Positions 34,313-48,288 of a stretch of DNA of 48,288 bases are shown piece by piece. Position 1 is the stretch's first letter. The number at the start of each line of letters is the position of its first letter. The notes under the pieces are model-generated. The model searched no databases. It was not told the origin of the DNA and worked only from the letters and a program-made list of their open reading frames with translations. The translations under genes and the position numbers were made by a program. The stretch is from positions 1-48,288 of the forward strand of contig JAZDEX010000039.1 in NCBI GenBank assembly GCA_043808405.1. The letters run 5' to 3'. Source of the DNA: Candidatus Omnitrophota bacterium. Lineage in GTDB: Bacteria; Omnitrophota; Gorgyraeia; Gygaellales; Profunditerraquicolaceae.

Positions 34313-34342
34313 TTGACATACCCCCTGGGGGTATGTTATATT
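34313..34342 (+). promoter_or_regulatory. csoR promoter with overlapping CsoR-type operator
   Basis: TTGACA (34313) and extended -10 TGtTATATT; inverted repeat ACATACCCCC-T-GGGGGTATGT (34316-34336), resembling the ATACCC...GGGTAT CsoR operators of Firmicutes. Confidence 0.85.
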
Positions 34343-34364
34343 TTAACTAGGAAAGGAGGCTAAT

Positions 34365-34646
34365 GTGAATAAATATCCTAGCTATGATGCGAATATGGTG
34401 GCGTTAAGAAGAATAGAGGGGCAGGTCCGCGGGTTACAGCGGATGATTGAGGATAGGCAGTACTGTGTGGATATTTTAACCCAGATTCATGCAGTGATTG
34501 CTGCTTTGGCGCGGGTGGAGGATAAAGTTTTAGAAGCGCATTTTGCGCATTGTGTTACCAAGGCGGTAAATGGAAGTTCTGCGAGCGACAAAAAGAAAAA
34601 ACTGGATGAAATACTTAAACTCATCCATCGGTTCCGTAAAATTTAA
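34365..34646 (+). CDS. csoR: Cu(I)-sensing repressor, CsoR/RcnR family
   Basis: LRRIEGQVRGLQRMIE, YCVDILTQI, HFAHCV (C-H-C ligand fingerprint); AAAGGAGG RBS. Confidence 0.9.
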   Translation: MNKYPSYDANMVALRRIEGQVRGLQRMIEDRQYCVDILTQIHAVIAALARVEDKVLEAHFAHCVTKAVNGSSASDKKKKLDEILKLIHRFRKI

Positions 34647-34663
34647 CAAGAAAGGAGATTCTC

Positions 34664-34867
34664 GTGAAGAATTTTATTATTATGTTAGTTATAGGTTTAG
34701 CTTTATTGTCCCAAGGTTCTGCTTTTGCCGGGCAATGCTGCGCTAAAGGGCAGTGCAAGGTTGGCAGCGTTGCTTGTTGTAAAGATGGCGTATGCAATTG
34801 CGCTGATAAGTCTTGTTGCGCAAACGGCGCTTGTAAATGTACTAAGGATTGTTGTAAAGCTAAATAG
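34664..34867 (+). CDS. Secreted cysteine-rich metallothionein-like peptide
   Basis: AAAGGAG RBS and GTG; 22-aa signal peptide ending AFA; 45-aa mature part with 13 Cys. Confidence 0.75.
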   Translation: MKNFIIMLVIGLALLSQGSAFAGQCCAKGQCKVGSVACCKDGVCNCADKSCCANGACKCTKDCCKAK

Positions 34868-34887
34868 GTAGTTTAGGTGTAAACTTT

Positions 34888-34930
34888 AACCCTCTACAAT
34901 AGGACTTTTGTTGCAGAGGGTTTTTGTTTT
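34888..34930 (+). terminator. Terminator closing the csoR two-gene operon
   Basis: AACCCTCTACAATAGG-AC-TTTTGTTGCAGAGGGTT followed by a T-rich run. Confidence 0.8.
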
Positions 34931-35080
34931 ATATTTATATTTTATGGTGTTCGTAGTTTTATGTACAGCTTATGGAATATATTATGTTGTAAAATTAAAG
35001 GCAAAGAGAAAGGTAAAGGTATAATTTTCTTGCTAAGTAAGCGGCTTTGTGATATAAAAAATACTAAGGAGGGACAAGCT

Positions 35081-35512
35081 ATGTTGAAGAAAGGTGTATT
35101 AGTTGTAGTAGCAGTTTTGGCTTTTGCCTCTGCTTATGCCCAAGATGGCACAGAGCAGGCGAAGGAAGTTTCTCAGGATCAAGTTATTAGCGTAGCAGTT
35201 GCGCCGCCGGCTACGCCGGCTCAGGGTGTTGCCAAAGACCAAGTTATAAGCATCGCGACTGCGGCAGTTAAGGAAAAAGGATTTGCCGCTGAAGAAGCGC
35301 AGATAATTTACGATGATGGCAACAAGCTATGGCTTGAGCAAATAGGTAAAATCGCCGGGGTGGACAATTCTCCTAATTACGGTGTGCTTAAGAGAGGATT
35401 TCTTAAGAATTATTATACCGTATATTTTGATTTTAAAGAGCCGCTTAAAGATGTCTGGGTTTTTATAGACAAAGATACTGGCGAGGTGTCGGAAGTATAT
35501 CAGGAGCAATAA
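35081..35512 (+). CDS. Exported protein of unknown function
   Basis: AAGGAGG and ATG 35081 (track start 34961); signal peptide ending AYA; short internal duplication DQVIS; C-terminal WVFIDKDTGEV. Confidence 0.65.
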   Translation: MLKKGVLVVVAVLAFASAYAQDGTEQAKEVSQDQVISVAVAPPATPAQGVAKDQVISIATAAVKEKGFAAEEAQIIYDDGNKLWLEQIGKIAGVDNSPNYGVLKRGFLKNYYTVYFDFKEPLKDVWVFIDKDTGEVSEVYQEQ

Positions 35513-35580: not shown

Positions 35581-35970
35581 ATGTTTAAGAAAATCGGATT
35601 TTTTATATTTGGTTTAATTTTAATGGTAAATATTTCTGGCTGCTTAGCGGTGGCTGCCGGAGCAGCAGGCGGGGCAGGCACAGCAACTTGGCTTGCAGGT
35701 AAAATTACTAAAGAGGTGGCAGCTACATTTGATCATTCTGTAAAGGCGGCTGAGTCGGGATTAAAATCATTAAACTTTCCAATCGTTAAACAGACAGTTA
35801 AATATGATGTTGCTCAATTTATTAGTAAATATACCGATGGAAAGACAATTTGGGTTGATGTTAAGCGTGTAAGCCAGAAACATACTACTATAGAGGTGCG
35901 TGTGGGCGCAGTTAAAAGCGATAATGAAGCAGAGCGTAAGATTATGGATAGGATTTTAAGATATTTATAA
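35581..35970 (+). CDS. DUF3568-family lipoprotein
   Basis: ISGC lipobox, AAGAAGGAG, TTIEVRVG. Confidence 0.75.
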   Translation: MFKKIGFFIFGLILMVNISGCLAVAAGAAGGAGTATWLAGKITKEVAATFDHSVKAAESGLKSLNFPIVKQTVKYDVAQFISKYTDGKTIWVDVKRVSQKHTTIEVRVGAVKSDNEAERKIMDRILRYL

Positions 35971-43214: not shown

Positions 43215-46200
43215 ATGCCTAGCAAAACCCTATTTAAGATACTCTCATTATTTATTTGCTTCCTGCTTATTTTTGATCAATCAGGTTTAGCTCAGACTGC
43301 GGCTCAGTTGAATATAGCTGGCTATTTGAGCGGGCTGAATAATGCTGCTATCCAAAATAAATTCCGCCCTTTGCATTTAAGGTTTCTGCAGTATATTGCA
43401 GAGAATAATAGCTTTAAGCTATTAATAGACAAGGGGAGCGGCAGTGTCATTGCGAGCGAGGCTGAAGGCCGAGCGAAGCAATCTTTCAAGATTGCTTCGT
43501 CGCCTGCGGCTCCTCGCAATGACACTGAGTTAGAAGCGGCCACTAAAAATCTCCTAAATTACTTCTTCATCGGTTTAACCCTTCCTAATGATAGCTTTTG
43601 GGTAAATCTCCGCCCTGACTCGCCTGACAATATTATTGATGACGCTTTAGCCAAAACCGATGTGGGTAAAATTCTTCTTGAAGCGGATGTTCAGTTAAAG
43701 AAAGACACCGCTAAATTCACCTCGCCCGATACCCCTGAAGGGAAAGTTTATTGGAGTAAGCTTTATAAAAAAGCAGGGGAGCTTTTTGGCTCTGAGAATA
43801 TTACTATTCCTACTTTAACCCGGCCTTGGATTGTCCCGGGTGAAATTATTATTTATGAATCTAAAGGCAGCGCCTACGTCTATAAGGCCAGCTTGAAAGT
43901 AATGCTGGAGGAAGACTATCTTAGGGATGCCTCTAGTAGTCGACGTTTAAACGTCGACTACTCTGTGGATAACTTTAAGGATGAGAGATTAAAGCAACTT
44001 AATAAATACTCCACAGAATTAATTAAAGAATCTATTATCCCAAAACTTACCAAAGAAATAAATACCTCTAAGCGTTACGCCGCCCTTCGACAGGTATATT
44101 ATTCGTTAATTCTCGCGCAGTGGTTTAAAACGCGTTTTAATGTAGGGGCACCCCTTGTGGGTGCCATAAACGATAGGGCGGGCACAAGGCCCGCCCCTAC
44201 AAATATGATTAATCTTATTGATTCCAAAAATCTCACCAACCTTACCTCCAAAACCGCTTGGTCCAAAGATACCTATTTCCAAGAATACCAAAAATCTTTT
44301 AAAGATGGCGAGTATAATTATCAAGAGCCAGTTTATACTATGCAGGGTAAAAATATTAGGAGTTATTTCTCTGGTGGGCTTACACTGGGTAAGGCTGTAG
44401 CTGGTGCTGTTTCATCTGATCCAGCTGGTTTAGCCGGCGCAGGCACCGCGAGAATAGAACATTCTCTGAAAGCATCACCTGATACTGTGGCTAATCTTGC
44501 GGTTACCGCTGAATTAAATCCAAATAACCCTTCTGAAGTTACAAGAGTTACAGCAGGAATCCCAGAAGAGGCGTCCTTGCCCGAGGTTCCTCAAGCCCAA
44601 GGCCAATCAATAGGCGCCTCTTCTTCAAATATTGATTTAGATGATAGTACATCTTTAACTGATTTAGGCCAATCAACCGGTAAATCCGGTTTAATAGGGA
44701 AATATGAGGTTATAGACGGACCGGTATTCAATGAAACCCTAGGGATACTTGTAGTAAGGTTAAGAGATATCGAAACTCAAAAAGAAAGAACCGTTAATCT
44801 AAAATTAGCAAAAAGAATTTCGCTTAAAGATACAAAAAGAAAATTGCAGGATAATCAAATTTTAATGAACAATAAAATAGCAGGAAAGATTGTTAAATGG
44901 TTTTTAGATATATTTCATGGTGATATATTAGCCATAGAGGATAACGAATATGGTATTTTTGGTGCTTCAGGCAGCACGATCATTGTAACAGATAAGCTTT
45001 CAGCCAACCCTATAGTATTATTTCATGAAGTAGGGCATAGTGCTATAGATTCGGGGGCTGTAAGTGTTGATGAAATAATAGATTTCTTATCACCGGAAGC
45101 GAAGTCGTGGTTTGATGCACATATATCTAAGGGAGGGCGAGCAAATCTACGTGTACATTATGCTTTAAGGGCTTTGCAAAGGGATATATTTGGCGAAGAC
45201 GACAAAGAGTTAACCGAAGTAATTAAACATAGCTTAGAAGGACAAGCCAGCGAACATCTAACGCCCAGAAAATCCGTTGTTAATATATGGCAGGCAATTA
45301 AGGGTCGAACTGCTATTTTAATTGGTAATGACAGACAAATAAGAAATTATTTAGCTTTAGAGTTGGAAGATTTTAGACAGACGTTTAATCCTGAAAGGTT
45401 AAAAAGAATTATTTTTCAATTAATTGATGCAAGGCGGCTCGAGTATCTCGATCCATTGTTAAGCGTTTTATGCAGTTTTAAATATATGAGCTATATGGAT
45501 ACACTTGCTCTGCAAGGCGAATCAATGGTACATGCCATTAATAGATCTATTGCTGATATAGAGCATAAACTGGTGCAAGCAGGGAATTGGAGTTTTTCGG
45601 AAAAAATGTCACGTTGGGGACGCGATGCCATAGTTAAAGCAGACTATATGAGAATAGATACAGATTTTAAGGAACAGGTTTTTAAAACAGGTAAGCGTGT
45701 TGATACAATTGAAGCAGTATTAGCCCAAATTGATGCCGCAAAATTTGGCGATGCCTATGTCCTTGAGAGAGTATTAACTTATGCTGAATATCTTACTTTA
45801 TTTAAAGGTAAGACCTATGAATTAGGTATTTCCATTGTAGAGCATGAGGGAAAATATTATACGGTTATTATTAGGGGCAATAAAACATCTTGTTATATTT
45901 TAGATGGGCTATTAGGTATTCATATCCATCCTGGAAATGGAATATATACTGTTTTTGCCTCGTGGGGCGATATTGAATCACTAAGGGCATCTTCTAGTAA
46001 CGATAATTATATCTACCACGAAGCATCTAAAAGCCTTCTTAAATATAGCATAATGGGAAATTATAAGCAGGATTATATTTTGATTAAGTTAGATGATGGC
46101 AGGGAATATAAATTTTCGATTAAGCATGATGATTTTAAAAATGTTCTAATCTATGGTCCAATGGTTGGCTTGGGAGAAAAGAATGCTGTTGTAATAGATA

Positions 46201-48288
46201 CAGCTTGTAAGAAAATGTTGGAGTTATTACGACAGAAAGCGAATGCGTTTACAGTTTATTATCCGATTGGAGTAAGTATTAATTTTGATCCTACTATTAC
46301 TATGGAGGGAGAGTTGCAAGAAGTAGGTAGTCGGATTTCTACTTTCTTACAAGCTGTTGAGGCCGCGACTGCTATAACTAGCAATGAAGTAATAGGCGAA
46401 TCATCTAAACAAGCCATCTTGACGCCAATAGATGAATTGTTAGCGAGAAAAAATGCGGAAATTATTTTTTCTACTCCGCAAAGCCCTGAGAAGAGATATC
46501 ATCTTAAGATACAAGAAGACTTTATGAGCCCTGGATTAGGGGAGAAAAAAACAGAGTCGATGTTTTCAGTAGAAACTGTTTCTCAAGAAGGAGAAAACGG
46601 GTATCCAGTAGCAATGCTGACAGGAATTACTATGGATAATGATGGTATTGTAACTTTTAATTGGATTATTACTTTAGATTATCAAAAAGTATTTAAAGAA
46701 ATTCAGGGATTACGTTCAGCCTGTGAGCCAGGAGATATGACTTTAATCGATACCATGGCTCTTTATTTCGTAATCGGTTCTCCTGAATATGCTGCGCAGG
46801 CGAAATTTCTATGGAAGCATCTCACATCGTTACAGATTAAAACTGATGAAGATGTAACAAAATTTTTTCAGAATGCTCCTAAGAATTTGCGAGGTGAAGG
46901 TGTGGGTAGCGCTTGCCTTGAATTTCTGACTAGTTTTATGCCGATCGGAAGTAGAATAAAATCTGCTTTGGCAAATAAAGAATCTTTGGATGCGTTAGAT
47001 AAGGGAGAGAGGCCTGAAAATACTTTAATTGGTAAAATGTTCCAAAGGTTAGGGTATGAAGTAAATCAGAAAAGTGATGATGGGTTTAGTATGTTCCCCG
47101 GCTATATTTTGGAGAAAAGAAGATTACCATATTTTAAAATAGTCTGGTGGAATAAAGATATACTCGGAAAACATTTTTTGCCATCCAACTCTACTCCCTC
47201 AGCCGCCGCTAAGGCTTCGAGCGCAGTGGTTAGCAATGAACAAGCTGGGTTATATATAGAGGATCAAATTAGAGCAATAGGAATGTATGCGGATACGCTT
47301 GAGGGCCGGCAGGGTAAATTAAAAGAAATGCTGGCAAAGGGCTTTGCCTACATAAAAGATGGTATTGTATTTATTAGAATACAGGGTTTATTAAATAAGG
47401 GGCAATTTGGACATATAGGCTTAGGGCAAACTTATGGCCAGTCAGTTGTATATATCGATCAAGATTACGCCGAGAATGCTACTATTCAAGGCCATGAATT
47501 AGAAGAAATTAGATTATGGAATCAGGCTTTAGATAATGAACTTAGAGGAGAGGTAAAGTCCCTCGGCGAAGTCCGCGCCTGGATGCGGGAAAATTTACAA
47601 GAAGCTGTAGATTTAACCGAGAAACTCCACGCCCAAGCAAATCAGAAATTTAATGTTGATGTATTCGCTAAAAGCTCAGGCATTATCACACAGCGCGATG
47701 GGGTAGAGGAATTAAGGTCCGGCGAGACTCCGAGCGTGGCGGCTTTTCCGCCACTTCAACAGAATGAAATGTCTGCTATAGTGGGCTCAAGCGTAAAGAT
47801 AGCTGATGATCGAGTCTTACCTGGTAATAAATTAACTATTGATGCGTTGCAACAGATGCTTGATGAGATTTATCCTGGAGAGAAAAAAGAAGAAACCTTC
47901 TGGCAGTATCGAGGTAAGAATTATCTTTTATTGTCGACGCAACATTACGTAAGAGTCGGTAGTTTTGTTTTTCTACCATATGGTATTTGGCGCCAAGAAA
48001 AAGAAAAATTATTACCATATCGAGATTTTATAATTGTATCTGAATTACGTAGAGGCAATGAAGTAGGTATTTTAAATTTTCCATATGGAAATCAAACCCG
48101 ATTATCAATTTTAATGCTTCAGGCTTATGCTATCCTAATTAAGGAACAAGTTATTTTAGATGTAGGTAGTGGTAGTGACGCGATTCTTTCTATAGTTGCA
48201 AGTCGCTTGGGAGCAAAAAAAATTATTGGCGTTGAACTAAACCGTGAATCAGTAATATTGTCACATGTGTTTTTAAAAATAAATGGAG
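43215..48288 (+). CDS. Large secreted multidomain protein, 5' part (at least 1691 aa; runs off the window)
   Basis: Hand-translated with no stop from ATG 43215 to the end: MPSKTLFKILSLFICFLLIFDQSGLA signal; FWVNLRPDSP...RPWIVPG...LKVMLEEDYL...RSYFSGG domain; HEVGH, HIHP..S..D, RGEGVG, HELEE and LDVGSG motifs. Confidence 0.9.
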   Translation, partial: MPSKTLFKILSLFICFLLIFDQSGLAQTAAQLNIAGYLSGLNNAAIQNKFRPLHLRFLQYIAENNSFKLLIDKGSGSVIASEAEGRAKQSFKIASSPAAPRNDTELEAATKNLLNYFFIGLTLPNDSFWVNLRPDSPDNIIDDALAKTDVGKILLEADVQLKKDTAKFTSPDTPEGKVYWSKLYKKAGELFGSENITIPTLTRPWIVPGEIIIYESKGSAYVYKASLKVMLEEDYLRDASSSRRLNVDYSVDNFKDERLKQLNKYSTELIKESIIPKLTKEINTSKRYAALRQVYYSLILAQWFKTRFNVGAPLVGAINDRAGTRPAPTNMINLIDSKNLTNLTSKTAWSKDTYFQEYQKSFKDGEYNYQEPVYTMQGKNIRSYFSGGLTLGKAVAGAVSSDPAGLAGAGTARIEHSLKASPDTVANLAVTAELNPNNPSEVTRVTAGIPEEASLPEVPQAQGQSIGASSSNIDLDDSTSLTDLGQSTGKSGLIGKYEVIDGPVFNETLGILVVRLRDIETQKERTVNLKLAKRISLKDTKRKLQDNQILMNNKIAGKIVKWFLDIFHGDILAIEDNEYGIFGASGSTIIVTDKLSANPIVLFHEVGHSAIDSGAVSVDEIIDFLSPEAKSWFDAHISKGGRANLRVHYALRALQRDIFGEDDKELTEVIKHSLEGQASEHLTPRKSVVNIWQAIKGRTAILIGNDRQIRNYLALELEDFRQTFNPERLKRIIFQLIDARRLEYLDPLLSVLCSFKYMSYMDTLALQGESMVHAINRSIADIEHKLVQAGNWSFSEKMSRWGRDAIVKADYMRIDTDFKEQVFKTGKRVDTIEAVLAQIDAAKFGDAYVLERVLTYAEYLTLFKGKTYELGISIVEHEGKYYTVIIRGNKTSCYILDGLLGIHIHPGNGIYTVFASWGDIESLRASSSNDNYIYHEASKSLLKYSIMGNYKQDYILIKLDDGREYKFSIKHDDFKNVLIYGPMVGLGEKNAVVIDTACKKMLELLRQKANAFTVYYPIGVSINFDPTITMEGELQEVGSRISTFLQAVEAATAITSNEVIGESSKQAILTPIDELLARKNAEIIFSTPQSPEKRYHLKIQEDFMSPGLGEKKTESMFSVETVSQEGENGYPVAMLTGITMDNDGIVTFNWIITLDYQKVFKEIQGLRSACEPGDMTLIDTMALYFVIGSPEYAAQAKFLWKHLTSLQIKTDEDVTKFFQNAPKNLRGEGVGSACLEFLTSFMPIGSRIKSALANKESLDALDKGERPENTLIGKMFQRLGYEVNQKSDDGFSMFPGYILEKRRLPYFKIVWWNKDILGKHFLPSNSTPSAAAKASSAVVSNEQAGLYIEDQIRAIGMYADTLEGRQGKLKEMLAKGFAYIKDGIVFIRIQGLLNKGQFGHIGLGQTYGQSVVYIDQDYAENATIQGHELEEIRLWNQALDNELRGEVKSLGEVRAWMRENLQEAVDLTEKLHAQANQKFNVDVFAKSSGIITQRDGVEELRSGETPSVAAFPPLQQNEMSAIVGSSVKIADDRVLPGNKLTIDALQQMLDEIYPGEKKEETFWQYRGKNYLLLSTQHYVRVGSFVFLPYGIWRQEKEKLLPYRDFIIVSELRRGNEVGILNFPYGNQTRLSILMLQAYAILIKEQVILDVGSGSDAILSIVASRLGAKKIIGVELNRESVILSHVFLKING
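43442..43527. repeat. Family A palindromic doublet, in frame within the large ORF
   Basis: 15-bp terminal IR CAGTGTCATTGCGAG/CTCGCAATGACACTG and 12-bp central IR CGAAGCAATCTT-TC-AAGATTGCTTCG. Confidence 0.9.
43935..43978 (+). repeat. Family B element, copy 2, in frame within the large ORF
   Basis: Perfect 28-bp palindrome AGTAGTCGACGTTTAAACGTCGACTACT, then C-TGTGGATAACTTTAA. Confidence 0.85.
44141..44201. repeat. GTAG-type REP doublet (family C), in frame within the large ORF
   Basis: TGTAGGGGC...GCCCCTACA ends; hairpins GGCACCC-CTTGT-GGGTGCC and GGGCGGGC-ACAAG-GCCCGCCC with complementary loops. Confidence 0.9.

Follow-up and report, generated by a model that had tools for sequence, protein, structure and literature searches.

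What does a copper-type repressor control when the only gene behind it encodes a very small, cysteine-rich peptide? The question is raised by a short operon on the plus strand (positions 34313-34931) of a 48,288-nucleotide stretch of DNA, referred to here as the window, from an uncultured groundwater bacterium of the phylum Omnitrophota. The operon consists of a csoR gene and a gene for a 67-residue product. We read it, with a probability of roughly 0.55, as an autoregulated csoR joined to a Sec-exported, metallothionein-like peptide that would act as a periplasmic thiolate sponge derepressed by Cu(I). The layout of the operon, its regulator's family and ligands, the fit of its operator, the conservation of the peptide and its linkage to csoR are direct observations. 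An earlier note on this DNA had described a self-contained operon with a palindromic operator in its promoter, a csoR with C-H-C ligands, a 67-residue open reading frame (ORF) with a strong ribosome-binding site as the only cargo, and a terminator. All of these parts were found again, and the unit in the window is indeed csoR plus the peptide gene, closed by the terminator. The note's reading of the peptide as a periplasmic, Cu(I)-sequestering metallothionein class has partial support: it agreed with the sequence evidence on each point that computation can address, while metal binding, its core, is deduced.

The regulator is encoded at 34365-34646 (plus strand, 93 residues, GTG start, AGGAGG ribosome-binding site) and matches PF02583 with an E-value of 1.9e-26 and 92.7 bits, the cut-off being 22.8. 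Its ligand residues are Tyr33-Cys34, His59 and Cys63, and the spacing of 25 and 4 between them is the same as that of Cys36/His61/Cys65 in MtCsoR of M. tuberculosis. Residues 1-11 contain no His or Cys, which leaves the protein without an N-terminal W ligand and makes it one of the x-C-H-C type. The arrangement Tyr-Cys...His...Cys occupies the X-Y-Z columns in the window CsoR and in all 29 aligned CsoRs from its order and class. A csoR gene is present in 58 of the 234 genomes of the order, and the 22 further CsoRs that were aligned all have Y-C...H...C. In the available sections of PMC11672702, x-C-H-C proteins are given as Cu(I) sensors, x-C-N-C as the persulfide sensor CstR and H-C-H-H as RcnR, with the caution that the ligand motif of the CsoR family predicts the inducer incompletely. 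Judged by these motifs, the window regulator belongs to the Cu(I)-type ligand subgroup of the CsoR/RcnR family. Its scores fall well short of what NCBIfam requires for RicR, FrmR and RcnR, and its assignment as a RicR orthologue (NF052430) was rejected at 79.3 bits against a cut-off of 175. We also noticed a 302-nucleotide RNA contig in a groundwater metatranscriptome that is 100% identical to positions 34348-34649, starting 6 nucleotides past the -10 hexamer and stopping 3 nucleotides past the csoR stop codon. Such contigs cannot mark RNA ends, DNA carry-over is possible, and this one indicates only that the csoR sequence occurs in an RNA library. The peptide gene has no contig cover in three runs, which with contigs at a depth of 4 is uninformative either way.

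The promoter of csoR is of the sigma-70 type (34313-34342, plus strand), with a -35 hexamer TTGACA at 34313-34318, an 18-nucleotide spacer and a TG-extended -10 hexamer TATATT at 34337-34342, and it agrees with the consensus at 11 of the 12 hexamer positions. A perfect 21-bp palindrome, ACATACCCCC-T-GGGGGTATGT (34316-34336), takes up the whole spacer together with the last three bases of the -35 hexamer and is the putative CsoR operator. Its core, TAC-CCCCTGGGG-GTA (34319-34333), lies between the -35 and -10 elements of csoR's own promoter, the classic arrangement for a repressor that occludes RNA polymerase. The same core, with at most one mismatch, occurs once per genome, at the csoR-peptide operon, in four genomes (G000, the window's own assembly, and G228, G116 and G079); G229 has one further site at one mismatch besides that of its operon. 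According to Tan et al., in the available text of PMC3902906, CsoR operators carry a G-tract motif, 5'-TAC-X9-GTA-3', which is needed for CsoR binding. The window core fits this motif and lies near the streptomycete consensus quoted in that text (PMC3902906).

Downstream of the peptide gene, an intrinsic terminator (34888-34931, plus strand) is formed by a 14-pair hairpin at 34888-34922 followed by the U-run UUUUUGUUUU. The hairpin has a folding energy of -20 kcal/mol (z -3.07), and none of 200 shuffled sequences folds as well. No terminator-like structure was seen in the 17-nucleotide spacer between csoR and the peptide gene, which holds the ribosome-binding site GAAAGGAGA at 34651-34659 (plus strand). 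The 67-residue ORF (34664-34867, plus strand) begins 17 nucleotides after the csoR stop codon with a GTG that is preceded, 5 nucleotides upstream, by AAGGAG. Its N-terminal segment MKNFIIMLVIGLALLSQGSAFA (34664-34729, plus strand) was read by eye as a predicted Sec-type signal peptide, with a basic n-region (K), a 12-residue hydrophobic core and an A-x-A site (AFA), and with neither a twin-arginine motif nor a lipobox. The predicted cleavage after AFA (residue 22) would leave a mature peptide of 45 residues (34730-34867 with the stop codon, plus strand) in which CCxxGxCx[V/C] occurs three times and is followed by CC. It contains 13 Cys (29%); F, W, Y, H and M are absent. The earlier note had counted 13 Cys in 45 residues and had found no aromatic residues or His, which is correct, Met being absent as well. 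Its 13-residue period is right as to the repeats but not as a strict period, since the CC pairs begin at residues 25, 38, 51 and 63 of the 67-residue product and are thus spaced by 13, 13 and 12.

Metallothioneins are operationally defined by low mass, about 30% Cys, few or no aromatic residues or His, and CC and CxC motifs. The window peptide agrees with this definition in size and composition (45 residues, 29% Cys, no F, W, Y or H), and its ORF is the most Cys-dense stop-to-stop frame of the 907-kb assembly, with 13 Cys per 40-residue window; the runner-up, within a 361-residue protein, has 10. The peptide matches no Pfam and no NCBIfam family at E<=1, and a profile of its family finds only a spurious match in PDB (E 1.4), so that the question posed by the earlier note, whether the peptide belongs to an already characterized family, is answered in the negative within these collections. 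AlphaFold2, run on a 30-sequence alignment, gives the peptide a predicted local distance difference test score (pLDDT) of 54.7, too low for a usable model, with residues 3-15, in the signal, as the sole helix. Blocks of 10 residues from residue 11 onward have pLDDT values of 44-58, and no autonomous fold is seen for the mature part. Such a lack of predicted fold would be expected of a chain that folds around metal, for which the model is weak evidence.

Is the peptide more than a chance reading frame? A word-index search with the window peptide found no protein beyond itself. An exhaustive phmmer search against 1.84 billion representatives gave two relatives, and a five-sequence profile gave 10 proteins out of 5.8 billion, none with a Pfam domain. 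We then come to the genomes themselves: six-frame profile searches gave family members for 27 of the 234 genomes in the window's order and for 21 of 401 sampled across the phylum, a union of 39 genomes, all of which belong to the same family, order or class as the window. The alignment of 42 sequences (41 members, plus the copy of G116 read with X at its stop) has invariant Cys columns and the scaffold CC-x4/5-C-x-C-x4-CC-x4-C-x-C-x3/4-CC-x4-C-x-C, usually followed by C-x3-C-x-C. All 42 sequences have an N-terminus of the signal-peptide kind, with n, h and c regions and an A-x-A site. The pooled composition from the first Cys onward is C 30%, K 14%, G 11.5%, A 10% and S 7%; the aromatic residues F, W and Y sum to about 0.5%. 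The number of Cys ranges from 10 to 16 with a mode of 15 (24 of 41 members; 13 in the window), and six sequences have one more Cys within the signal peptide. The invariant Cys columns in 39 genomes, together with the top Cys density, argue that the peptide ORF is more than chance, and on this comparison the peptide represents a real, conserved and unnamed gene family. The earlier note had suspected a class that annotation would easily miss; the family is unnamed, and the source-named matches in the 5.8-billion-protein collection are all titled "hypothetical protein".

The G116 copy (L020 1501-1722; G116:C33:68751-68972), which is csoR-linked, contains an in-frame TAG at codon 43 with the remaining frame conserved; gene decay to a pseudogene, a fault of the assembly and read-through are all conceivable. 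Metagenome-contig scans with P0003 and P0004 gave no confirmed match for the first and, for the second, one match limited to the signal peptide (L171). When 80 csoR loci of other phyla were scanned for small Cys-dense ORFs, none belonged to the peptide family. Apart from one DUF326-like four-helix protein, that scan returned nothing but frame noise from GC-rich sequence.

The genomic context of the family was inspected at 38 loci, two of them fragmentary. The check proposed by the earlier note, a search for homologues next to csoR, was positive by profile search: the peptide gene immediately follows csoR in 7 of the 38 loci, from seven genera and two families (G000, G228, G229, G116, G079, G112 and G544). 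Six of these seven operons consist of csoR and the peptide alone, with a spacer of 12-20 nucleotides that bears a Shine-Dalgarno sequence. Upstream of csoR in all seven, TTGACA directly abuts the operator and is followed by a -10 element (TAxxxT), and the core TACCCC-N-GGGGTA is present in six, G112 having the variant ATACCATACCCCCCTATGGTAT. Six csoR-only peptides have one extra residue, inserted after the second CxC and before the third CC, that all 31 others lack, and so form their own subfamily; four metagenome proteins have the insertion too. The genes flanking the loci vary (MetW/tautomerase, Thi4, CysK, a MacB-type permease, NuoB), and since they differ by locus, the cassette travels as a unit.

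The earlier note had stated that CsoR usually controls copA/copZ, which does not hold in this lineage, where the other csoRs that were annotated precede TolC-like or porin-like outer-membrane genes. The genes after seven other csoRs of the order are TolC-like OEP genes in three cases (L142, L153, L156), porin-like genes in three (L146 and L148 above the Pfam cut-off, L145 below it) and without a match in one. By these gene orders, CsoR-type sensors in the lineage appear to govern envelope proteins, the peptide being one of three kinds of cargo. A simple TAC...GTA pattern was not found upstream of the other csoR loci of the order (L142-L170).

In 30 of the 38 loci the gene directly upstream of the peptide encodes an exported partner protein of about 105 residues (loci L007-L033 and L124-L141; for example L024 1148-1465 and L018 1133-1441). 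G112 bridges both arrangements, with three genes in the order csoR-partner-peptide. The partner has the Cys pattern H-x-x-C-x-C-C-x3-C-x5-C-H-x5-C-x-C, in which CC, C and CxC are invariant, as is the C-terminal FHPP, behind which stands K, R or N. Four partners scanned against Pfam, DUF2946 included, had no match at E<=1, and no NCBIfam family was found. The 5.8-billion-protein collection holds 26 relatives, of which two are listed as Candidatus Omnitrophica hypothetical proteins, and the AlphaFold2 model (pLDDT 51.5) is not usable. A search of five csoR-peptide genomes with the partner profile, which had no positive control of its own, found none. Many partner loci (for example L019, L016, L023 and L026) have a -10-like GGTATAAT or GGTATACT only about 5-9 nucleotides before the partner ATG, with no CsoR box, which suggests leaderless or near-leaderless partner mRNAs. 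In L022 (G063) a 102-residue MerR-family regulator with the C-terminal Cys motif CWEIKKCKPAERQGC is encoded at 837-1145, directly upstream of the partner-peptide cassette.

The partner invites comparison with CutF of Rhodobacter capsulatus, which senses periplasmic copper through its nascent chain. Copper slows CutF's cotranslational export and thereby opens a stem-loop in which the next gene downstream has its Shine-Dalgarno sequence concealed, as described in the available portion of PMC9973294. From the same portion, CutF resembles the partner in its Sec signal, its CxxxC, its C-terminal Pro-Pro with a basic residue and its position immediately upstream of an exported cargo (PMC9973294). 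Unlike the partner, which has no such match at E<=1, CutF matches DUF2946, and its cargo is a multicopper oxidase rather than a Cys-rich peptide. In folds of the partner-peptide junctions, the peptide's Shine-Dalgarno sequence pairs with bases upstream of it at 23 of 29 loci, which are interrelated, against 16.9 expected from shuffles. Of these 23 pairings, 17 use the last eight partner codons, including the Pro-Pro codons. These folds lend weak support to a masking of the Shine-Dalgarno sequence. By analogy, the CutF-like architecture of the partner may be a second link of the peptide family to copper, and if the analogy holds, copper would govern the same cargo in both arrangements, through CsoR in the cytoplasm and through the partner in the periplasm. 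The comparison bears on the partner gene of the sister subfamily, the window itself having no partner.

The gene content of the carriers was also inspected for copper handling and redox state. A P-type ATPase was not found in G000 (64.75% complete), G228 (88%) or G229 (94%), nor was an HMA domain in G000. G116 and G112 have one P-type ATPase each, both without the CPC motif, that of G112 being PEGL-type. In the search of six csoR-linked genomes of the order, a CPC/HMA enzyme of the CopA type was detected in G079 alone, and four of the six, one of them the 65%-complete G000, showed no P-type ATPase or only a non-copper type. Neither heme-copper oxidase (COX1, PF00115) nor multicopper oxidase (PF07732) was found in G000, G228, G229, G116 or G544, and copper therefore appears to be a toxin and not a nutrient for the carriers. 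DsbB and VKOR serve the oxidative folding of exported proteins; neither was found in any of five carrier genomes (92-95% complete), in searches that were positive in control genomes. The odd Cys count of most family members makes complete intramolecular disulfide pairing impossible for them. Together, the odd Cys counts, the negative searches for DsbB and VKOR and the lack of a predicted fold favor free rather than disulfide-bonded thiols in the peptide.

From these parts we infer copper induction, export, cleavage, reduced thiols, metal binding and stoichiometry as follows. At low copper, tetrameric apo-CsoR would sit on the palindrome between the -35 and -10 elements and block RNA polymerase. 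A rise of cytoplasmic Cu(I) would load Cys34, His59 and Cys63, CsoR would leave the DNA, and both genes would be transcribed as one mRNA ending at the hairpin of 34888-34931. The 67-residue product would then be exported unfolded through Sec and cleaved after AFA, and the mature peptide of 45 residues and 13 Cys would be kept reduced in an anoxic periplasm unable to form disulfides. There its thiolate clusters would take up Cu(I) and probably further thiophilic ions as well; by the known copper-thionein ratio, 13 Cys might hold about 6-8 Cu(I). Binding in the periplasm would lower the free copper that reaches the cytoplasm, so that the peptide would serve as a stoichiometric sponge and not as a pump. 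A wider proposal, which we hold only tentatively and at odds clearly below even, is that Omnitrophota have Sec-exported metallothioneins, the first extracytoplasmic ones in bacteria, with one cargo wired by lineage to two copper sensors (cytoplasmic CsoR at the level of transcription and, at the level of translation, a CutF-like sensor that responds from the periplasm through its nascent chain), and that in reduced genomes without a P1B-type ATPase the sacrificial sponge would be the main or only copper defense, replacing efflux.

Several points weigh against the sponge. Most family members are not next to csoR, and their upstream regions show no CsoR box. The peptide has no match to any known metallothionein family in Pfam, NCBIfam or PDB, including the Pfam family of SmtA, and the sole hint of a name comes from the ESM Atlas, where all neighbors lie below 0.9 and one at 0.84, under the 0.9 bar, is titled "putative Metallothionein". 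A low-confidence AlphaFold model built from 30 aligned sequences argues only weakly for a metal-dependent fold, and the in-frame TAG of G116 implies that the peptide gene can decay. With G000 at 64.75% completeness, its missing copA and HMA genes prove little there. Metal binding, copper induction and export are, all three, deduced steps.

Small secreted Cys-rich peptides are often disulfide knots, and the window peptide may accordingly be imagined as a disulfide-rich mini-protein (antimicrobial, toxin-like, signaling or structural) that is merely under CsoR control. The 13-residue repeat could form a small solenoid, no metallothionein model matches the family, and Omnitrophota are thought to include host-dependent cells. 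This we consider improbable: most members have an odd number of Cys, which lies anywhere between 10 and 16 in the family, DsbB/VKOR are found in none of the five near-complete carriers, no confident fold is predicted, the operon has no immunity, transporter or maturase gene and is terminated directly after the peptide, and the linkage to an x-C-H-C CsoR in seven genomes and to a CutF-like protein at 30 loci would be left unexplained. Even less can be said for a precursor of a ribosomally synthesized and post-translationally modified peptide (RiPP) whose leader merely resembles a signal peptide. Short Cys-rich RiPP precursors do exist, for example of a type with six Cys in 45 residues, and a radical SAM gene lies upstream of csoR in the related locus L030, but among the six csoR-linked loci scanned for the gene upstream it is the only one with such a neighbor. 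Genes for a maturase, protease or exporter are neither part of the window operon nor adjacent to it, the operon having QueC upstream and unknown secreted proteins downstream, and a canonical n-h-c N-terminus with an A-x-A site is found in all members; we regard this explanation as very improbable indeed.

The other two alternatives keep a chemistry of thiols or metals and change its purpose. The regulator might sense reactive sulfur species or another thiol-reactive electrophile, the peptide being a periplasmic thiol or persulfide buffer or carrier. The CsoR family does include persulfide and formaldehyde sensors that use the same Cys (available parts of PMC11672702 and PMC10318464), ligand motifs predict the inducer incompletely (PMC11672702, likewise in part), and Thi4 (nine loci) and CysK (five) recur beside the family by clustering, with DsrE and a NifU-like gene in single loci. 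These sulfur-related neighbors, however, vary by locus and are not consistently co-oriented, and the operon has no sulfurtransferase or sulfide:quinone reductase gene of its own. The operator is of the copper-CsoR type, and all 29 aligned CsoRs have His at the Y position, where characterized CstR has Asn according to the sections available of PMC11672702, all of which leaves sulfur sensing with a small share of the probability. The peptide could instead bind metal for another end, as a periplasmic copper store or chaperone, or as a sponge mainly for Zn, Cd, Hg or Ag. Csp1 offers a precedent as an exported Cys-lined Cu(I) store (available text of PMC7558416), thiolate clusters are promiscuous, and a MerR-family regulator stands upstream in one relative locus (L022). 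Still, the regulator type points to Cu(I), the peptide has no Tat signal and no helical bundle, and no heme-copper or multicopper oxidase was found in five carriers that would be an obvious client for stored copper. Because there is no such client, a defensive sponge is likelier than a store of the Csp1 kind, and we judge these other metal-binding roles to be unlikely.

Around the operon, the window encodes QueC upstream and, besides a cold-shock protein, an unknown secreted protein and a DUF3568 protein. The former of these two (35081-35512), downstream of the terminator, has 143 residues, an N-terminal hydrophobic signal-like segment and no family; the latter (35581-35970) has a lipoprotein-like N-terminus and matches PF12092 with an E-value of 1.5e-20. 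Neither is conserved beside other csoR-peptide loci. An ORF of more than 1691 residues (43215-48287) runs off the 3' end of the window. By clustering, Thi4 lies beside the cassette in L012, L015, L018, L021, L024, L026, L027, L033 and L137 (five of these ORFs Pfam-confirmed), and CysK in L011, L022, L135, L136 and L138 (one ORF Pfam-confirmed). This recurrence may reflect synteny or a link to cysteine supply. The RicR regulon of M. tuberculosis, in the parts available of three sources (PMC3944814; PMC13712938, PMC13712839), includes cysK2.

Among characterized systems, MymT is closest to the window operon in logic and Csp1 is closest in location. MymT, of the M. tuberculosis RicR regulon, is likewise a small Cys-rich Cu(I) peptide that was initially unannotated (PMC3944814 and PMC7558416, as far as available), and it is repressed through a promoter palindrome by an autoregulated Cu(I) sensor of the CsoR family, the CsoR paralogue RicR (PMC3944814, in its available part). 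Unlike the window peptide, it is cytoplasmic, with a mass of 4.9 kDa, no signal peptide and no sequence similarity, and it is not co-operonic with its repressor. Csp1 of Methylosinus trichosporium, in the available account of PMC7558416, is an exported Cys-rich Cu(I) holder that takes 13 Cu(I) per monomer. It differs in being a pre-folded four-helix-bundle tetramer, exported by Tat, that serves copper supply in methanotrophs, whereas the carriers of the window family have no detectable cuproenzymes (PF00115 and PF07732, five genomes). Membership of the Csp1 type was rejected for the window peptide, which has no twin-arginine motif, no predicted helix after residue 15 and a mature part of only 45 residues. 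BsCsoR-type sensors of copZA operons (B. subtilis, S. lividans, G. thermodenitrificans) share the fold family, the ligands, the G-tract TAC/GTA operator and the autoregulation with the window regulator, but their cargo is a P1B ATPase and CopZ, whereas that of the window is a single predicted exported peptide. SmtA/BmtA are also small, Cys-rich and under a metal-sensing repressor. SmtA, however, is a cytoplasmic protein that folds like a zinc finger, uses His ligands and stands under the control of the ArsR-family SmtB. SmtA is treated in PMC7558416.

In the literature searched, with subscription journals outside its scope, no description was found of a periplasmic, secreted, exported or otherwise extracytoplasmic bacterial metallothionein, nor of this CsoR-linked family of Cys-rich peptides in Omnitrophota. 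The peptide is most likely a metallothionein active outside the cytoplasm, which would be a kind so far undescribed in bacteria. Bacterial copper defense is taught as sensing combined with efflux or oxidation, and the Cys-rich buffers recognized so far are, to our knowledge, either cytoplasmic (MymT, SmtA, Csp3) or a Tat-exported, pre-folded bundle (Csp1). If the sponge reading is true, a metallothionein exported by Sec, folding around its metal and placed directly under CsoR would represent both a new compartment and a new logic, copper being bound outside instead of pumped. The operon would also be a compact natural part, with a 21-bp operator, a 93-residue sensor and a 45-residue binder, that is testable as a copper-responsive module, and the unnamed family would become searchable in surveys of metal resistance in groundwater and sediment metagenomes. 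Should the CutF-like pairing be true as well, the sister subfamily would provide a second natural case of nascent-chain metal sensing. For the organisms themselves, the finding, if true, would show how very small anaerobic genomes manage without a copper ATPase.

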